64,000 bases of DNA from Escherichia coli (GCF_044324875.1 NZ_CP172185.1), one strand, 5' to 3'. Shown: positions 7,751 to 48,399, counted from the stretch's first letter. A program made the numbers and translations. Notes: generated from the sequence alone by a model not told the origin.

Positions 7751-8039
7751 ATGCAACAAAAAATGATTCAATTTAGTGGCGATGTCTCACTGCCAGCCAT
7801 AGGGCAGGGAACATGGTATATGGGCGAAGATGCCAGTCAGCGCAAAACAGAAGTAGCTGCACTACGCGCGGGCATTGAACTCGGTTTAACCCTCATTGAT
7901 ACCGCCGAAATGTATGCCGATGGTGGTGCCGAAAAGGTGGTTGGGGAAGCATTAACCGGTCTGCGAGAGAAGGTCTTTCTCGTCTCTAAAGTCTATCCGT
8001 GGAATGCTGGCGGGCAAAAAGCGATAAATGCATGCGAAG
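7751..8039 (+). pseudogene. yeaE: yeaE (aldo-keto reductase) 5' fragment, interrupted by IS insertion
   Basis: N-terminal 96 codons of YeaE (MQQKMIQFSGDVSLPAIGQGTWYMG...AINACE), then the frame runs into IS sequence and stops at 8056. Confidence 0.85.
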
Positions 8040-8241
8040 TGCAAAATGGCATCTGAATCGATCGCAGTTTGGCATTCGAATCGATCATGATTTGGCATCC
8101 ATCTCCGATCACAGTTTGGCATCACAATCGATCACGATTTGGCATGCTTCCGATCATTGATTGGCATCCTGCCAGTCACTCCGGGAATTAACTCTTTTCA
8201 CCACAGTCTCCATTGCCGTGTTTAAACCAGTGGAGACGTCA

Positions 8242-9807
8242 ATGTCCAGAAAGAGAAAATCCAGGAGCACTATGGAAACCTGTTTTAAGATCCTTCAGCT
8301 CAAGTTCGACAAGAAGCTGACTAACCGTTGTATCGGACTGACGTTACACATCAGCGCCTCAACCGTTTTTGAGGTTCTTGCCCGCTTCAAAGCCTCTTCT
8401 CTGTCATGGCCATTACCTGCTGATATATCCCATGACACGCTGGAGAAACTCATTTTTCCGCCCAAAGACACCTTTGCATCAGAGCTTGTAATGCCTGACA
8501 TGTTGTACTTCGATACGGAAATGAGAAAACCAGGTGTGACGCGGCAACTGTTGTGGATGGAATACAAGGCACAGGCGGGTAACAAAGCGATGGGATACTC
8601 GCACTTCTGCCGTTGCTACCGGGAGTGGAAAAAAACGCGACGTCTCTCCATGCGCCAGGAGCATCGTGCCGGCGAAAAGCTTTTTATCGACTTCTGTGGT
8701 CCTACGGTTCCTGTTATTAATCCGGACACCGGTGAGATACGCCGCGTGGCAATCTTCGTGGCCGTAATGGGGGCGTCCAACTATACCTACGTTGAAGCGT
8801 GCGAAGGTCAGGACATGATGTCATGGTTAAATGCCCACAGCCGTTGCCTGACCTTCCTGGGCGGCGTACCGAAGCTGCTCATCCCCGATAACCTCAGAAG
8901 CGCAGTGAAAAAGGCCGATCGATATGAGCCTGTCATCAACGACAGTTATCAGGCACTGGCTGAGCACTATGGCACGGTTATCATCCCGGCCCGACCACGC
9001 AAACCTAAAGATAAACCAAAAGCAGAAAACGGCGTCCTCATCGTTGAACGATGGCTTCTTGCCCGCATCCGTAATGAAACCTTCCACACGCTCAGGGCGC
9101 TGAATGCGCGCCTTAGGGAGTTACTGACAGACATGAATAACCGGCCAATGAAGGGGTACGGCAATCAAACCCGTGCAGAACGCTTCCGCATACTGGATGC
9201 GCCAGCACTCTCTCCGCTGCCTCTGGCACCTTATGAATACACGGAATACAAAGCTGTGAAGGTTGGCCCTGACTACCACGTTGAATATGCCCGTCACTGG
9301 TACTCCGTTCCACACGAACTGGTCGGTCAGCGTCTGTCACTGAAGGCGGGGCAGTCGGTGGTACAGCTCTGGCACAAGGGGCAGTGTGTGGCGCAACATC
9401 CGCGCAGCACACATGAATATAAACACACAACCAATCCGCTTCACATGCCAGAGCGCCACCGGCAGCACGGGACATGGACACCGGAACGCCTGATCGAGCA
9501 GGGAAAACGTACGGGCCCGTCCACAGGCCGGGTGGTTGAATCCATGCTGAAGGCAAAACCCCATCCGGAACTGGCTTATCGTGCAGTTCTGGGGCTGCTG
9601 GCACTTCAGAAAAAATACGGCCCGGAACGGCTGGAAAAGGCCTGTTACGTTGCCCTGCACTATAACGCCCCTGACAGACGCTTTATCGACAATCTGCTGC
9701 GTCACCATCGGGAGAACCTGGAGCTTCCATTATCCCGCCAGGGCGAACAACATCCGGCATATGCTTCAGAGCATGAAAACCTGCGTGGTCCGGGCTACTA
9801 CCACTGA
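8242..9807 (+). CDS. istA: IS21-family transposase IstA
   Basis: About 520-aa ORF with N-terminal HTH and DDE-type catalytic core typical of IstA; RBS GGAG upstream of ATG 8242; followed by istB. Confidence 0.85.
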   Translation: MSRKRKSRSTMETCFKILQLKFDKKLTNRCIGLTLHISASTVFEVLARFKASSLSWPLPADISHDTLEKLIFPPKDTFASELVMPDMLYFDTEMRKPGVTRQLLWMEYKAQAGNKAMGYSHFCRCYREWKKTRRLSMRQEHRAGEKLFIDFCGPTVPVINPDTGEIRRVAIFVAVMGASNYTYVEACEGQDMMSWLNAHSRCLTFLGGVPKLLIPDNLRSAVKKADRYEPVINDSYQALAEHYGTVIIPARPRKPKDKPKAENGVLIVERWLLARIRNETFHTLRALNARLRELLTDMNNRPMKGYGNQTRAERFRILDAPALSPLPLAPYEYTEYKAVKVGPDYHVEYARHWYSVPHELVGQRLSLKAGQSVVQLWHKGQCVAQHPRSTHEYKHTTNPLHMPERHRQHGTWTPERLIEQGKRTGPSTGRVVESMLKAKPHPELAYRAVLGLLALQKKYGPERLEKACYVALHYNAPDRRFIDNLLRHHRENLELPLSRQGEQHPAYASEHENLRGPGYYH

Positions 9808-9824
9808 CAGAAGGAACAACAGTA

Positions 9825-10579
9825 TGAGTGATAACCTGTTAAACAAACTGACCCAACTGAAACTCCCGGCGATGGCCGGGAGCCTGATACGGCAGCGGGA
9901 AACGCCTCAGACCTACGACGAACTGTCGTTCGAGGAAAGGCTGACGCTGCTGGTTGATGACGAGCTTCTGAGCAGGGAAAACAGCCGTGTGGCACGGTTG
10001 AGAAAAAATGCCGGCCTGAAATACCAGGCAACACCGGAAGGGCTGCGCTATCCGGCCTCAAGAGGTCTGCGGGCTGAACAGATGAGAGAACTGCTGAACG
10101 GCCACTACATAACCCACAGGAAAAACCTGCTGATAACCGGTCCGACAGGATGTGGCAAGAGCTGGATAGCCAATGCGCTGGGCGAACAGGCATGTCGACA
10201 GAAACACAGCGTCCGGTACTGTAGAACCGGGCGATTACTGGAACAACTGGCTCAGGGACGTGTTGATGGCAGCTGGCTGAAATATCTGAAACAGTTGCAA
10301 AAAATACAGGTTCTAATCCTGGACGATCTGGGGCTGGAACAGTTAAGTAACGCCCAGTGTAATGACCTTCTGGAGCTCATAGAGGATCGTTACGGACAAA
10401 GCAGCACGATAGTGGTAAGCCAGTTCCCGGTAGATAAATGGCATGGTCTGATGGAGAACCCAACAACAGCAGATGCCATCCTGGACAGACTGGTACATAA
10501 CTCACACCGAGTGGTCCTTCAGGGAGAGTCACTGAGGAAAAATCCCCCGGTAGTGGAAAGCAGCGAAAAAACGCGTTAA
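9825..10579 (+). CDS. istB: IS21-family ATP-binding helper IstB
   Basis: 251 aa from MSDNLLNKLTQLKLPAMAG...; Walker A GPTGCGKSW and Walker B ILDDLG; starts 15 bp after the istA stop. Confidence 0.88.
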
Positions 10580-10678
10580 AAAGCGGTAGAAAAAGTTAAG
10601 TTCCCGGTTGATCGAATGGATGCGAATCGCTGATCGGACTTCGATGCCAATCCGTGATCGAATAGAGCGGAATACGCA

Positions 10679-11249
10679 CGAAGCCAGTTTACGCCGTCTC
10701 AATACTGATTATCTCGATCTCTACTTATTACACTGGTCTGGCAGTTTCGCTCTCGAAGAGACTGTCGCAGCGATGGAAAAATTGATCGCCCAGGGCAAAA
10801 TCCGCCGCTGGGGCGTTTCTAACCTTGATTATGCCGATATGCAGGAACTCTGGCAGCTGCCGGGGGGGAATCAGTGTGCCACTAATCAGGTGCTTTACCA
10901 TCTCGGTTCACGAGGGATTGAGTACGATCTACTTCCCTGGTGCCAGAAACAGCAGATGCCGGTGATGGCTTACAGTCCGTTAGCTCAGGCCGGGCGGTTG
11001 CGCAATGGGCTGCTAAAAAACGCAGTAGTCAACGAAATTGCACATGCTCACAATATCAGCGCGGCACAAGTATTGTTAGCGTGGGTAATCAGCCATCAGG
11101 GTGTGATGGCGATTCCAAAAGCGGCCACGATTGCCCATGTCCAACAAAATGCGGCTGTGCTTGAGGTTGAATTTTCGTCAGCGGAATTAGCTATGCTGGA
11201 TAAGGCATATCCGGCACCAAAAGGAAAAACTGCGCTGGATATGGTGTGA
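10679..11249 (+). pseudogene. yeaE: yeaE 3' fragment (aldo-keto reductase C-terminal part)
   Basis: Frame resumes exactly at the target duplication with ASLRRLNTDYLDLYLLHW... through the YeaE C-terminus. Confidence 0.85.
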
Positions 11250-12267: not shown

Positions 12268-13275
<1,008 letters not shown>

Positions 13276-14059: not shown

Positions 14060-14332
14060 ATGAATCTTGATGACATTATCAACAGCATGACGCCTGAGGT
14101 ATACCAGCGTTTGTCGACCGCCGTTGAATTGGGGAAATGGCCTGATGGCGTTGCGTTGACCGAGGAACAAAAAGAGAACTGCCTGCAACTGGTGATGCTG
14201 TGGCAAGCCCGCAATAATACCGAAGCACAGCATATGACAATTGACACAAATGGTCAGATGGTCATGAAGAGCAAACAACAGTTAAAAGAAGACTTTGGTA
14301 TCTCAGCAAAGCCTATTGCCATGTTTAAGTAA
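14060..14332 (+). CDS. yeaC: YeaC (DUF1315 family small protein)
   Basis: 90 aa from MNLDDIINSMTPEVYQRLSTAVELGKWPDG...; immediately downstream of msrB. Confidence 0.85.
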   Translation: MNLDDIINSMTPEVYQRLSTAVELGKWPDGVALTEEQKENCLQLVMLWQARNNTEAQHMTIDTNGQMVMKSKQQLKEDFGISAKPIAMFK

Positions 14333-14580
14333 GTGGTTTGTCCCCTTTTTGCCGCGGTTATAAAGGGGATAGCCAACAATAACCCACGACTCATCTCAAT
14401 TATCTCGTCACGACCAGGCTAAGTCCCAGCCCGGTCTCTTGCAGTCGCGTTCACGCCTGAATGACTTCTCCTGAACTTAAGTCTCAGACCTATTTGGCCG
14501 GTAATCCCTCTCAAATTTGCTCATTTTGCGTTCCGCCTTCCATCAACCTGTAACAGATCCAGCCATTTTCTGCGTAATTG

Positions 14581-14606
14581 TGATCTGAGTTGTAAAACGC
14601 AGATCA
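14581..14606. promoter_or_regulatory. Perfect 7-bp inverted repeat (GATCTGA...CAGATCA) upstream of ydjL; candidate operator
   Basis: tGATCTGagttgtaaaacgCAGATCa, about 95 bp upstream of the ydjL start; no coding assignment. Confidence 0.25.
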
Positions 14607-14700
14607 TTATCTGTGTTCTACAGATTTAATGTTGACCTCAAAAATCATGTGGGTAAGTATGATGACCATCTAAGCAAAACAAAACACAGAGGATGACGCA

Positions 14701-15777
14701 ATGAAAGCACTGGCTCGGTTTGGCAAAGCCTTTGGCGGCTACAAGATGATCGATGTCCCACAACCCATTTGTGGCCCGGAAGATGTAGTGATTGAAATTA
14801 AAGCCGCGGCAATCTGCGGCGCAGACATGAAGCACTACAATGTCGATAGCGGTTCTGATGAGTTTAACTCTATCCGCGGCCATGAGTTCGCAGGTTGTAT
14901 TGCGCAGGTTGGTGAAAAAGTCAAAGACTGGAAAGTGGGGCAACGCGTCGTGTCGGATAACAGCGGTCACGTCTGCGGCGTTTGTCCGGCCTGTGAACAA
15001 GGTGATTTTCTGTGTTGTACAGAAAAAGTAAACCTTGGTCTGGATAACAATACCTGGGGCGGTGGTTTTTCCAAATATTGTCTTGTTCCTGGTGAAATTC
15101 TCAAAATTCATCGTCATGCGTTGTGGGAAATCCCTGATGGTGTTGATTATGAGGACGCAGCCGTACTTGACCCTATCTGTAATGCCTACAAATCCATCGC
15201 GCAGCAATCGAAATTCCTTCCTGGTCAGGATGTGGTCGTCATCGGCACTGGCCCACTCGGGCTGTTCTCCGTACAAATGGCGCGGATTATGGGGGCGGTA
15301 AATATCGTCGTCGTTGGTCTGCAAGAAGATGTGGCGGTCAGCTTTCCGGTTGCAAAAGAACTGGGTGCGACGACTGTAGTAAATGGTTCTACCGAAGATG
15401 TGGTGGCGCGCTGCCAGCAAATTTGTGGCAAAGACAATCTGGGACTGGTGATTGAATGCTCCGGTGCCAATATCGCACTGAAACAAGCCATCGAAATGCT
15501 CCGTCCGAACGGGGAAGTGGTACGCGTTGGAATGGGCTTCAAACCTCTTGATTTCTCGATTAATGACATTACCGCCTGGAACAAAAGCATCATTGGGCAT
15601 ATGGCCTATGACTCCACCTCATGGCGTAACGCTCTCCGGCTATTAGCCAGCGGCGCTATCAACGTCAAACCGATGATCACGCATCGTATCGGCCTGTCGC
15701 AATGGCGCGAAGGGTTTGATGCGATGGTCGATAAAACCGCAATCAAAGTGATCATGACTTACGACTTTGATGAATAA
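14701..15777 (+). CDS. ydjL: Zn-dependent alcohol/polyol dehydrogenase YdjL
   Basis: 358-aa ORF with MDR-superfamily zinc ligands (CGADMKH, GHEFAG) and Rossmann motif VIGTGPLG. Confidence 0.88.
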   Translation: MKALARFGKAFGGYKMIDVPQPICGPEDVVIEIKAAAICGADMKHYNVDSGSDEFNSIRGHEFAGCIAQVGEKVKDWKVGQRVVSDNSGHVCGVCPACEQGDFLCCTEKVNLGLDNNTWGGGFSKYCLVPGEILKIHRHALWEIPDGVDYEDAAVLDPICNAYKSIAQQSKFLPGQDVVVIGTGPLGLFSVQMARIMGAVNIVVVGLQEDVAVSFPVAKELGATTVVNGSTEDVVARCQQICGKDNLGLVIECSGANIALKQAIEMLRPNGEVVRVGMGFKPLDFSINDITAWNKSIIGHMAYDSTSWRNALRLLASGAINVKPMITHRIGLSQWREGFDAMVDKTAIKVIMTYDFDE

Positions 15778-21042: not shown

Positions 21043-21178
21043 ATACTCAACACGATTCACCTCTGTTTCTGTGAAAACTGTGATGAAAATCTGTGATTCA
21101 AACAGGTTATTTTGAAAGTAAACATCAATTATGCGATAATCGCGCTAATGTGATGTAAAAAGATACAGGGGTGTAATC

Positions 21179-21937
21179 GTGGCGGCAAAAGACAGGATTC
21201 AGGCAATTAAGCAAATGGTTGCCAACGATAAAAAGGTGACAGTCTCAAATTTGAGTGGGATTTTTCAGGTAACCGAAGAAACCATTCGCCGCGATCTTGA
21301 GAAGCTGGAAGATGAAGGCTTTTTGACCAGAACCTATGGTGGTGCTGTTTTAAATACAGCGATGTTGACGGAGAATATCCATTTTTATAAGCGCGCTTCA
21401 TCGTTTTATGAAGAGAAGCAGCTTATTGCACGCAAGGCACTACCCTTTATCGACAATAAAACCACCATGGCAGCCGATTCCAGTAGTACCGTAATGGAAT
21501 TGCTCAAATTGTTACAGGACCGTAGTGACCTGACGTTGCTAACCAACTCGGCGGAAGCGATTCATGTTCTGGCTCAGTCAGAAATTAAAGTCGTTTCAAC
21601 GGGTGGGGAACTAAACAAAAATACACTTTCCCTGCAAGGAAGAATTACTAAAGAGATCATCAGCCGCTACCATGTCGATATCATGGTAATGAGTTGTAAA
21701 GGTCTAGATATTAACAGTGGCGCGCTGGACTCTAACGAAGCGGAAGCTGAAATCAAAAAGACAATGATCCGTCAGGCGACAGAGGTTGCGTTATTGGTTG
21801 ATCACTCTAAGTTTGATCGCAAAGCTTTTGTCCAGTTAGCTGACTTTAGTCATATTAATTACATAATAACTGATAAATCACCGGGTGCAGAGTGGATAGC
21901 ATTTTGCAAAGACAATAATATCCAGCTGGTGTGGTAA
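21179..21937 (+). CDS. ydjF: DeoR-family transcriptional regulator YdjF
   Basis: 252-aa ORF with GTG start; N-terminal DeoR HTH (VTVSNLSGIFQVTEETIRRDLEKLE) and C-terminal sugar-phosphate-binding domain. Confidence 0.88.
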   Translation: MAAKDRIQAIKQMVANDKKVTVSNLSGIFQVTEETIRRDLEKLEDEGFLTRTYGGAVLNTAMLTENIHFYKRASSFYEEKQLIARKALPFIDNKTTMAADSSSTVMELLKLLQDRSDLTLLTNSAEAIHVLAQSEIKVVSTGGELNKNTLSLQGRITKEIISRYHVDIMVMSCKGLDINSGALDSNEAEAEIKKTMIRQATEVALLVDHSKFDRKAFVQLADFSHINYIITDKSPGAEWIAFCKDNNIQLVW

Positions 21938-46458: not shown

Positions 46459-47343
46459 TCAGAACAGGTGATCCCACAGAGTGACCAGCAGGTGGATAAT
46501 GCGGTCCCGGGTTTTGCGCAGAAGCTGTAACATCCAGGCCGGAAAACTGAAACGGGCAACGGCGTCGTCAAAACTTTTCCCGATGGTTTCACCAAAAGTC
46601 TGTTGTGCGTGTTTCTGGACCCGTTCAGAGCGGTTTTCCCCCCGGATATGTGAATAAACCGCGCTGGTTGCCTGTGGCGGCAGTGCGTGGATCATCAGTG
46701 ACACCAGTGCCGGAATATTCCAGCCGACAGGCGCGGCAACGGGGAGTACCGGAAATGATGAAGGGAACAGGGTTGCCACCCGGGCTGTCACCGTCGCCAG
46801 CGAGAGTTCCTGGTGACGGGACGGGCATTTTTCTGTGTCGTTCCATTCTTCAGCAGGAAATACGCGATCGGCATGGCTGAGAACAAACAGAAAACGCGAG
46901 GGATCTGCACCTTCATTCAGTAAAAACTGATGCATGGCGATGTCGGCAGCATACGCACGTTCATCAGCCCGCAGGATCCAGATAATCAGATCCAGTTCGG
47001 GCAGTAACTGACTGTAAAGTGCCCGGTATTCCTGATCATGCTGTGGTGTTTCGCCAGTGCCGGGCAGATCGACCAGCGTCATTCTTCGTTCACCGGGCTG
47101 AAAGGTAAGACGATGAGCCTGACGGGTGCAGCCGTTCAGCGGATGCGTGGCGCAGACACGGGACTGAAAAATGGCATTGCACAGGCTGCTTTTTCCGGCA
47201 CCGGATTTACCCATAATGCCAATCACGGGCTCGTAATGAATAACACTGTGGAGATGTTCAAGGATTTTCTGGCGAATTTCTTCAGGAAGAAACGTCAGAT
47301 ATGATTTCACTTGTGCGGAGAGGGAAGAATGGCTGAATGACAT
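46459..47343 (-). CDS. YeeP/YfjP/YkfA-family GTPase
   Basis: 294-aa ORF with P-loop GIMGKSGAGKSS and G3 motif DLPGTG; typical lead gene of CP4-type island cassettes. Confidence 0.85.
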   Translation of the reverse strand: MSFSHSSLSAQVKSYLTFLPEEIRQKILEHLHSVIHYEPVIGIMGKSGAGKSSLCNAIFQSRVCATHPLNGCTRQAHRLTFQPGERRMTLVDLPGTGETPQHDQEYRALYSQLLPELDLIIWILRADERAYAADIAMHQFLLNEGADPSRFLFVLSHADRVFPAEEWNDTEKCPSRHQELSLATVTARVATLFPSSFPVLPVAAPVGWNIPALVSLMIHALPPQATSAVYSHIRGENRSERVQKHAQQTFGETIGKSFDDAVARFSFPAWMLQLLRKTRDRIIHLLVTLWDHLF

Positions 47344-47448
47344 ACCGGTATCCTGTTGATTTCACTGAACCGGATCACACTAATCCGGTTTATCATTCAG
47401 GTAATATGGGCGTGAAAAAATCTGGAGTGACAAAGTTCGGGAGGAGTG

Positions 47449-48399
47449 ATGGCATCACTGTCGATTAATACGCTACGCCGAATGAGCATTTGTAAAAGTC
47501 AGGCCTGGAAAGATACCCAGCGAATACTGAAGCGTAGTGGACTTGTGTACAGAGGGGAACGGTCAGAATCGTTTGATCCTGAGAAACATTTTAATCGTTA
47601 TACGGTGCGTTATCTGTACCTGCTTAACATAATTGCGCTTAAGATAAGGTCGGTTAGTAAATTTTCCTGTTGGATCGAGGTGGGACAATGCCATCGTATG
47701 ACTGGTAAACATTTATCTCTTAATGCCCCGCCTTTTATGCTGATTCCGCGTAGTATCCGGAGAAAAGTGGATGGATTCAGACAGTCAAAAGGTGAAGCAA
47801 CCCCAAAATCGGCTCAACCGTTCACGGGCAGTTTGTATGAGGTTTTGAGAAAGGAGAGCGATTCAGCTAAGCTGGACGCATGGATTGCTGAACTGCCTCT
47901 GAACTTGCAGGAGGAGGGAAAGGAAATCTCAGTCATGGGATTTAGTCCACGGGCTGTGGCCCGACCTGTTCTTCGGTCAGCATCCCCGACGTTTGAACTG
48001 TTTTATCAGGAGTATCAATCCCTAAGATTAAAATCTGTTTTTAAATTTGAACCAAGATTTGAACAACTTTTAACAAGACTGAGCTTTAGAAAACAATCAA
48101 TTCTCAGAAAACAACAATACAGGGTTAAATCGCAATTACTGGAGAGACTGGGGAATGTGTTGTTTTTCACGTCGCTTTATAACCAGGGATGTTTAGAGGA
48201 GTTTATAAATGCACTTGTGGAAAAGGAGGACATTTATCTGAAAATGTCCCCTGGGGAGGAAAAGGTGAAAGCACACCAGAAAATGGTTAACTACATTGAA
48301 GCGTTCTGCAACAAAATGACGGAAAAATACCTGATGCCCGCAGCAAGCAGACACTACAAAAAGAAGAAAATCGCCAGGAGCGAAAGTGGTGAAAGTTAA
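47449..48399 (+). CDS. Hypothetical protein (316 aa), low GC, unrecognised family
   Basis: Strong RBS GGGAGGAG 4 nt before ATG 47449; divergent from the GTPase gene; basic and coiled-coil-rich; no motif I can assign. Confidence 0.55.
   Translation: MASLSINTLRRMSICKSQAWKDTQRILKRSGLVYRGERSESFDPEKHFNRYTVRYLYLLNIIALKIRSVSKFSCWIEVGQCHRMTGKHLSLNAPPFMLIPRSIRRKVDGFRQSKGEATPKSAQPFTGSLYEVLRKESDSAKLDAWIAELPLNLQEEGKEISVMGFSPRAVARPVLRSASPTFELFYQEYQSLRLKSVFKFEPRFEQLLTRLSFRKQSILRKQQYRVKSQLLERLGNVLFFTSLYNQGCLEEFINALVEKEDIYLKMSPGEEKVKAHQKMVNYIEAFCNKMTEKYLMPAASRHYKKKKIARSESGES

Follow-up and report, generated by a model that had tools for sequence, protein, structure and literature searches.

The stretch of DNA analyzed here (the window) comprises 64,000 nucleotides from an Escherichia coli strain other than K-12, with the best match (99.5%) to strain CFSAN061763. 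In this window, ydjL and the genes that follow it lie downstream of gapA, msrB, and yeaC (Table 1). Pfam HTH_DeoR and DeoRC domains were found in the ydjF product, confirming that a DeoR-family regulator is encoded within the ydjL cluster, as an earlier reading of the window made from sequence alone (the sequence-only reading) had stated. That reading also treated ydjL through ydjE as a single operon. The gene order was as described, but ydjF has a separate promoter (PMC6561318, PMC3946193), and the operon is therefore more likely to be ydjLKJIHG. The ydjL promoter is off in culture and switched on in the mouse gut, where ydjLKJIHG ranked in the top two for consistency of response in a promoter screen (PMC6561318). 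According to Li et al. (PMC8085971), the ydjLKJIHG promoter binds CRP in an electrophoretic mobility shift assay (EMSA) and is CRP activated in vivo by RNA-seq.

Pattern scanning of the plus strand detected neither a strong consensus promoter nor an intrinsic terminator; a consensus scan misses the ydjL promoter because its −10 element is weak. The predicted sigma-70 promoter is nonetheless supported by an alignment of 23 Enterobacterales sequences, in which TTGA of the −35 element was invariant and AAnTAT, 17 bp on, was conserved. From these elements, we infer a ydjL start site near 14667; since this start is a prediction, all promoter-relative positions given here are uncertain by ∼2 bp.

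Two further features of the surrounding DNA were observed. The aldo/keto reductase gene yeaE is split by an IS21-family insertion (7751-11249); yeaE is intact in the closest E. coli relative. Just 3′ of the yeaC stop codon, a perfect 8-bp stem without a T tract (TCCCCTTT...AAAGGGGA, 14341-14369) may serve as a transcript-stabilizing or weak termination hairpin.

Table 1. Coordinates of genes, promoters, and sequence elements in the window
Feature	Position	Strand	Sequence	Remarks
yeaE, N-terminal part	7751-8056			
istA-like transposase	8161-9807			rve and Mu-transposase C domains
istB-like ATPase	9581-10579			
yeaE, C-terminal part	10608-11249			
gapA	12268-13272	−		
msrB, then yeaC	yeaC ends at 14332	+		
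"Additional half-site"	14554-14560	+	CAGATCC	CAGACC in K-12; CAGCCC or CAACCC in other E. coli
CRP-like site	14579-14594		TGTGATCTGAGTTGTA	Perfect left half TGTGA, poor right half; includes left arm of repeat
Inverted repeat, TGATCTG-N12-CAGATCA	14581-14606		TGATCTGAGTTGTAAAACGCAGATCA	About −86 to −61 relative to the predicted ydjL start site
Box B (weak copy)	14589-14603	+	GTTGTAAAACGCAGA	7.0 bits; 21 bp upstream of box C
Box C (strong copy)	14610-14624		TCTGTGTTCTACAGA	13.2 bits, rank 9; center at about −50, upstream of the ydjL −35 element
Predicted sigma-70 ydjL promoter	14632-14660	+		−35 TTGACC (14632-14637), 17-bp spacer, −10 AAGTAT (14655-14660)
ydjL	14701-15777	+		Followed by ydjK, J, I, H, G, F, and E
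Intragenic box	15009-15023		TCTGTGTTGTACAGA	ydjL codons 103-108 (DFLCCTE); 16.7 bits, rank 2
PydjF box	21090-21104		TCTGTGATTCAAACA	17.3 bits, rank 1 of the window; ydjG-ydjF spacer, upstream of −35 TTGAAA
ydjF promoter	21112-21140	+	TTGAAA-17-GATAAT	Read from the sequence
ydjF	21179-21937	+		DeoR/GlpR-family regulator

The inverted repeat in the yeaC-ydjL spacer

The sequence-only reading placed a perfect palindrome, written as GATCTGA-N12-CAGATCA, upstream of ydjL and proposed it as a candidate operator, possibly for YdjF. The repeat was placed at the correct coordinates, but the left string was misaligned by one base; GATCTGA lies 11 nt from CAGATCA and is not complementary to it. Checked against the sequence, TGATCTGAGTTGTAAAACGCAGATCA has perfect 7-bp arms, TGATCTG and CAGATCA, separated by a 12-nt spacer, and can be extended to arms of 11 nt (10/11 complementary) around a 4-nt center, GTAA. 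Perfect 7-bp repeats with spacers of 0 to 20 nt are frequent in the window (185 in 64 kb, or 2.9 per kb), and 32% of shuffled 368-bp intergenic regions held at least one. The exact repeat pattern, allowing up to two mismatches, was seen in 19 of 100 window shuffles. The 7-bp repeat as described is therefore within chance expectation. The extended form, present in only 1.8% of intergenic shuffles, is mildly unusual.

The repeat falls in the sole strongly conserved part of the yeaC-ydjL spacer. The spacer as a whole (14333-14700) had a megablast match in 4,333 of 5,426 complete E. coli genomes, mostly at 90 to 95% identity; the spacer, and possibly the cluster with it, is variable or missing in about one-fifth of strains. 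Only two differences from K-12 were observed between 14540 and 14660, with many in the spacer further upstream, and the 65-bp core at 14576-14640 was found in 4,063 E. coli genomes, compared with only 1,216 for an upstream 65-mer. Across the 23 Enterobacterales, conservation began abruptly at ∼14576 and extended to the ATG. Within this block, TGTGAtC (14579-14585) was invariant, as were both A's of CAGA (14600-14603), the C and G of which were present in ∼90% of sequences; ATCTGTGTTTTAnAGAT was a further conserved element, and the element called box C below was likewise invariant or close to it. The additional half-site CAGATCC that the sequence-only reading had noted at about 14552 is indeed present, at 14554-14560, but it is not conserved: it differs even between E. 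coli strains and sits upstream of the point at which conservation begins in the alignment. It is probably not functional.

Conservation of the palindrome across Enterobacteriaceae, which had been suggested as a check, was asymmetric, and outside this family the repeat was lost. The 6-bp core TGATCT/AGATCA was kept in most Escherichia, Citrobacter, Klebsiella, Raoultella, and Yokenella sequences, and selection on the symmetry of this core within that clade is possible. Only two to four of the seven pairs were left in Serratia, Enterobacillus, Symbiopectobacterium, and UBA3516; in the first three of these, the promoter, ydjF, and the element that we call box C (see below) were kept. The left arm was conserved only as part of TGTGATC, an element that begins 2 bp outside the repeat; no mirror-image CA follows the right arm. 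The inner TG of the left arm varied within E. coli (TCTG, TCTA, or TCCA), where the right arm was fixed; the outer TCA of the right arm drifted between genera (GATA, GATT, or GAAT). No compensating changes were detected at any pair among the 23 Enterobacterales, and covariation was no better than in shuffles.

These patterns bear on whether the repeat acts as RNA. It could form a hairpin in a long 5′ leader reaching back into yeaC, with attenuation or Rho-dependent control of ydjL. The ydjL "5′ UTR" primer of Adams et al. begins at 14225, within yeaC, which would place a start site 476 nt upstream of ydjL; the same authors detected Rho-dependent termination that affects ydjL. The region from 14570 to 14640 folds as two hairpins (−17.7 kcal/mol), with a modest z score of −2.64. 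However, changes in the arms were never compensated, no Rfam match was obtained, and no T tract follows the repeat or terminator was called there. The repeat also lies upstream of the conserved proximal promoter and so would be absent from mRNA started at that promoter. The Rho-associated 3′ end mapped in K-12 (1861188) is 144 nt inside the ydjL open reading frame, away from the repeat, implying that read-through transcripts from the yeaC start are stopped by Rho inside ydjL. With its modest folding score and lack of an Rfam match or covariation, an RNA element was rejected, and we regard this explanation as very improbable.

The GATC sequences in the two arms raise the alternative of a Dam methylation switch of the pap/agn43 type, or a SeqA target. 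GATC occurs at 14582 and 14602 (20 bp apart) and a third time at 14556; the copy in the left arm hardly varies. Arguing against such a switch, several genera lack the right GATC (GATA, GATT, or GAAT), the third is absent from K-12, and neither a literature search nor one methylome study turned up a report of undermethylation at this locus. GATC is, moreover, already part of the CRP consensus, of which TGTGATCT is the half-site. We consider methylation control highly unlikely.

A 15-bp box associated with the ydj cluster

Fourteen non-enterobacterial ydjL upstream regions (Firmicutes and Actinobacteria) were searched for motifs by expectation maximization (EM). The motif obtained is a 15-bp palindrome, TCT[G/T]TG-AAA-CA[C/A]AGA, usually present in two or three copies 20 to 21 bp apart, just upstream of a −35-like TTGAC/A. 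The E. coli window was then scanned with a matrix derived only from these non-enterobacterial regions, yielding nine matches of at least 13.2 bits in 64 kb. Two of the nine fall in ∼300 bp of promoter DNA, where ∼0.04 would be expected. The box, TCTGTG-N3-CACAGA, was recovered at PydjL, at PydjF, and inside ydjL, both in E. coli and in other Gammaproteobacteria. Its geometry was also shared: boxes are spaced 20 to 22 bp apart in most of the Gammaproteobacteria checked (20 to 21 bp in Firmicutes), and at PydjL and PydjF alike, 7 bp separate the end of the box from the −35 element.

At PydjL, the strong copy (box C) occupied the corresponding position in all gammaproteobacterial relatives checked, scoring 10.8 to 23.6 bits. 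The window carries a rare allele of this box, with C at 14618: of 4,063 E. coli genomes, only 16 were identical to it over 14576-14640. In K-12, as in most strains, this base is T, and the K-12 allele, TCTGTGTTTTACAGA, scores 21.0 bits, compared with 13.2 for C. The weak copy (box B) reaches a score attained by 0.07% of window positions. A copy 20 to 22 bp upstream of box C was present in nearly all gammaproteobacterial relatives checked, with none in Enterobacillus; scores ranged from −3.1 to 8.1 bits across Enterobacteriaceae genera (mostly 4.7 to 8.1) and were 14.2 in Serratia and 10.1 in Agarivorans. In the right arm of the inverted repeat, CAGATCA, CAGA is the box B right half, and the three bases after it are poorly conserved. 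The left arm lies outside any box, and its register scores 0.6 bits by the matrix.

Two other candidates in this region were set aside. A third box 20 to 21 bp upstream of box B (TCTGCGTAATTGTGA, 14569-14583) scored −2.6 bits and lacked conservation in other genera. Interpretations of TTGTAAAACGCAGA as a LacI-family, Cra, or PurR-like site were rejected on inspection by eye: its central CG is specific to E. coli, other genera having TGTGAAATGCAGA.

The box at PydjF has the same sequence, and the same 17.3-bit score, in Phytobacter; Citrobacter farmeri, Agarivorans, and Serratia have visibly related sequences that fall below the 13-bit cut. The TTGAAA-17-GATAAT promoter downstream of this box is listed as a constitutive RpoD promoter for ydjF (PMC3946193). 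As a separate observation, the start of the ydjG-ydjF spacer (CACCTCTGTTTC, ∼21058-21070) is complementary to the ydjF Shine-Dalgarno region (ACAGGGGTG, ∼21165-21175), and similar pairs occur in Citrobacter, Serratia, Agarivorans, and Phytobacter (five sequences compared). With the ydjF promoter situated between these arms, the predicted pairing might occlude the ydjF ribosome-binding site, but only in read-through operon mRNA.

The intragenic box was present in all gammaproteobacterial relatives checked, with variants within the degeneracy of the motif (TCTTTG, CACAGA, CAAAGA, and TGCAGA). It was absent in Firmicutes, though DFLCC is also encoded there, with other codons. Third-codon-position entropy at the six codons of this box was 0.194, the lowest of 350 ydjL windows (median, 1.04), which indicates selection on the DNA itself. 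The center of the intragenic box lies 399 bp from that of box C, or ∼38 helical turns, a phasing that was noticed post hoc.

The box accompanies a gene block with a broad distribution. YdjL orthologs with 76 to 98% amino acid identity were found in Enterobacterales, Lachnospiraceae, Anaerococcus, Enterococcus, Atopobiaceae, and Megamonas, and YdjF orthologs with 56 to 72% identity are annotated from Firmicutes. Seven other genomes were compared, comprising three Firmicutes/Negativicutes and four Gammaproteobacteria. In the former (Megamonas, an Anaerostipes-like contig, and Caproiciproducens), the YdjF ortholog (56 to 63% identity) closes the same gene block, and the same block structure was observed in Citrobacter, Serratia, Agarivorans, and Phytobacter. 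In all seven, ydjF lies at the end of the cluster, and no other regulator is retained with it. Several of the non-enterobacterial blocks carry an extra ribulose-phosphate-3-epimerase-like gene. The YdjL identities of the non-enterobacterial blocks (76 to 84% in Lachnospiraceae, Anaerococcus, Enterococcus, Atopobiaceae, and Megamonas) are far above the expectation for vertical descent, which points to horizontal movement of the ydj block between phyla.

Elsewhere in the window, a 16.4-bit match at 47354-47368 is probably due to chance; it lies in a divergent intergenic region of an accessory island (46459-48399) encoding a GTPase family protein and a hypothetical protein. This island is fully present in only ∼737 of 5,426 E. 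coli genomes, with up to six copies per genome.

Given this box, the proposal that the palindrome itself is the YdjF operator, with one dimer on both arms, could be weighed directly. In favor of it, the arms contain ATCTGAG and ATCTGCG, each matching the box half-site ATCTGTG at six of seven positions, and the pentamer ATCTG reaches its highest density in the window here (5 copies in 80 bp); the 6-bp core kept in most Enterobacteriaceae and the rarity of the extended repeat among shuffles also count toward it. However, the half-sites of the palindrome are spaced 8 bp apart, compared with 3 bp in every strong box, and the matrix gives the left-arm register the score of 0.6 bits noted above. The left-arm TG varies across the relatives (TCTA, TCCA, TCTT, or TCGA) while the invariant TGTGATC extends outside the repeat, unmirrored; Serratia, Enterobacillus, and Symbiopectobacterium have ydjF and box C but no repeat; and compensating changes are lacking. 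A dimer spanning both arms therefore seems improbable to us. Judged by this pattern of conservation, the repeat is not a single palindromic operator, and the likelier YdjF operator is a separate candidate, the 15-bp box just downstream of it. What stands of the original proposal is the region: YdjF control of the ydjL promoter is plausible because the repeat region is conserved and contains a motif that accompanies ydjF in different phyla. What does not stand is the palindrome as the unit of recognition.

A CRP-like site at the left arm

The left arm of the repeat lies within a CRP-like site, which agrees with TGTGA-N6-TCACA at 7 of 10 positions, a match equaled by ∼0.4% of window positions. 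Its right half, TTGTA or TTGTG, retains one or two of the five positions of TCACA and is not conserved as a CRP half. In contrast to this right half, TGTGA at 14579 is perfect and is the only such copy in the conserved stretch 14576-14660. The site is centered at 14586.5, ∼−80.5 from the start predicted at 14667. TGTGAtC was also found in Agarivorans and Phytobacter, and no equivalent was detected in the Firmicutes arrays, a distribution that fits acquisition of a putative CRP site in Gammaproteobacteria. Because CRP binding to the ydjL promoter and its activation by CRP have been published, TGTGATC is probably a CRP half-site.

The left half of the 15-bp box itself also has TGTGA at its core, and TGTGATC could instead be an extra YdjF half-site, such that 14577-14625 would form one YdjF array and CRP would bind elsewhere or only weakly. 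TGTGAT is the left half of the top-scoring PydjF box, TCTGTGATTC; the register of TGTGATC relative to box B is a constant 12 bp in E. coli, Serratia, and Agarivorans; and the poor, unconserved right half of the putative CRP site is as this alternative would have it. However, the arrays of Firmicutes and Actinobacteria contain no element offset by 12 bp, only the 20- to 21-bp spacing, and TGTGATC is confined to Gammaproteobacteria that have CRP. The promoter fragment does bind CRP (PMC8085971), and the TGTGA in question is the sole perfect copy in 14576-14660. We judge an extra YdjF half-site to be an unlikely, though not negligible, explanation of TGTGATC.

A model for regulation of ydjL

Taking the conservation, motif, and CRP data together, we favor, with somewhat better than even confidence, a reading in which the repeat is the junction of two adjacent elements in a CRP-dependent, probably YdjF-repressed ydjL promoter that carries predicted YdjF boxes. 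TGATC of the left arm is part of the invariant TGTGATC, most likely the strong half of a class-I-type CRP site near −80.5, and CAGA of the right arm is the right half of box B. A YdjF oligomer would occupy boxes C and B and probably, via a DNA loop, the intragenic box as well. Bound in this way, YdjF would keep CRP, at ∼−80, from stimulating a promoter whose −10 element is weak, and a sugar phosphate from the pathway would release YdjF. Occupancy of the PydjF box would amount to autoregulation. The analysis shows the sequences, how well they are conserved, the association of the motif with the cluster, and the constraint on synonymous sites; the identity of the bound proteins, whether regulation is negative or positive, the loop, and the inducer are inferred, the mechanism being modeled on GlpR, DeoR, and GalR. 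Expression that is off in culture and on in the mouse gut is consistent with a repressed, inducible operon. A box centered at −50 is unusually placed for simple steric repression, and YdjF could instead act as an activator. Neither YdjF binding studies nor a YdjF operator were found in the literature searched, and the ydj genes are absent from the Reg-Seq preprint.

One close parallel is the control of glpD and glpTQ-glpACB in E. coli by GlpR, reportedly described by Larson and colleagues, including Yang and Larson in 1996. GlpR uses tandem operators in helical phase near a CRP-dependent promoter, with further operators inside a structural gene that act at a distance, and its effector is a phosphate ester of the pathway. 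The ydj system resembles it in having a DeoR-family regulator encoded with a sugar/polyol catabolic cluster, candidate tandem and intragenic operators, and a CRP-dependent promoter. It differs in the sequence of the box (TCTGTG-N3-CACAGA), in the position of the promoter-proximal box, which lies upstream of the −35 element rather than over the core promoter, and in that YdjF binding, sign, and inducer are predictions. In the deo operon, which is controlled by DeoR, CytR, and CRP, repression involves multiple distant operators and looping, and the DeoR operator is a 16-bp palindrome, TGTTAGAA.TTCTAACA. There, too, the promoter is CRP activated, and sites for the specific repressor (candidate sites at ydjL) adjoin or overlap the CRP site; unlike deo, ydjL gives no indication of a CytR-type partner, and its CRP site has one good half only. 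The GalR repressosome at OE and OI is formed by a LacI-family protein, with a loop of ∼113 bp that needs HU. One operator upstream (∼−60), one in the first gene, and a loop around a CRP-dependent promoter are the features predicted in common for ydjL, where the spacing is ∼400 bp and the regulator belongs to another family.

Class I CRP promoters have TGTGA-N6-TCACA at −61.5, −72.5, −82.5, or −92.5. The ydjL promoter has a perfect TGTGA with the consensus flank (TGTGATCT), a weak −10, and published CRP binding and CRP-dependent expression (PMC8085971); in contrast to this class, its right half-site is poor, and the predicted center at −80.5 is 1 to 2 bp off −82.5. With its predicted protein-binding sites, the ydjL promoter is an ordinary composite promoter: the combination of CRP with a specific repressor is a standard sugar-operon design, and nothing about it is surprising in kind.

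With regard to its history, an evenly balanced case can be made that the box is a YdjF operator, new to the literature searched, that moved with ydjF and the ydj genes among Gammaproteobacteria, Firmicutes, Negativicutes, and Actinobacteria, and that Enterobacterales gained both the CRP half-site and an intragenic operator that loops over ∼400 bp and constrains synonymous codons. Such cross-phylum conservation would mean that horizontal transfer had carried the regulator and its operator as a pair, and the intragenic box would be regulatory DNA constraining synonymous codon choice. The ydjLKJIHG genes are among the less well understood clusters of E. coli, and their specific regulation is not described in the literature searched. 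With three copies in E. coli, one of them within coding sequence, and the same geometry at two promoters, the candidate operator opens the YdjF regulon and its inducer to direct testing and would be useful for the design of ydjL-promoter biosensors. If true, the YdjF-box reading would give this gut-induced operon, the substrate of which is still uncertain, a regulatory model specific enough to test.
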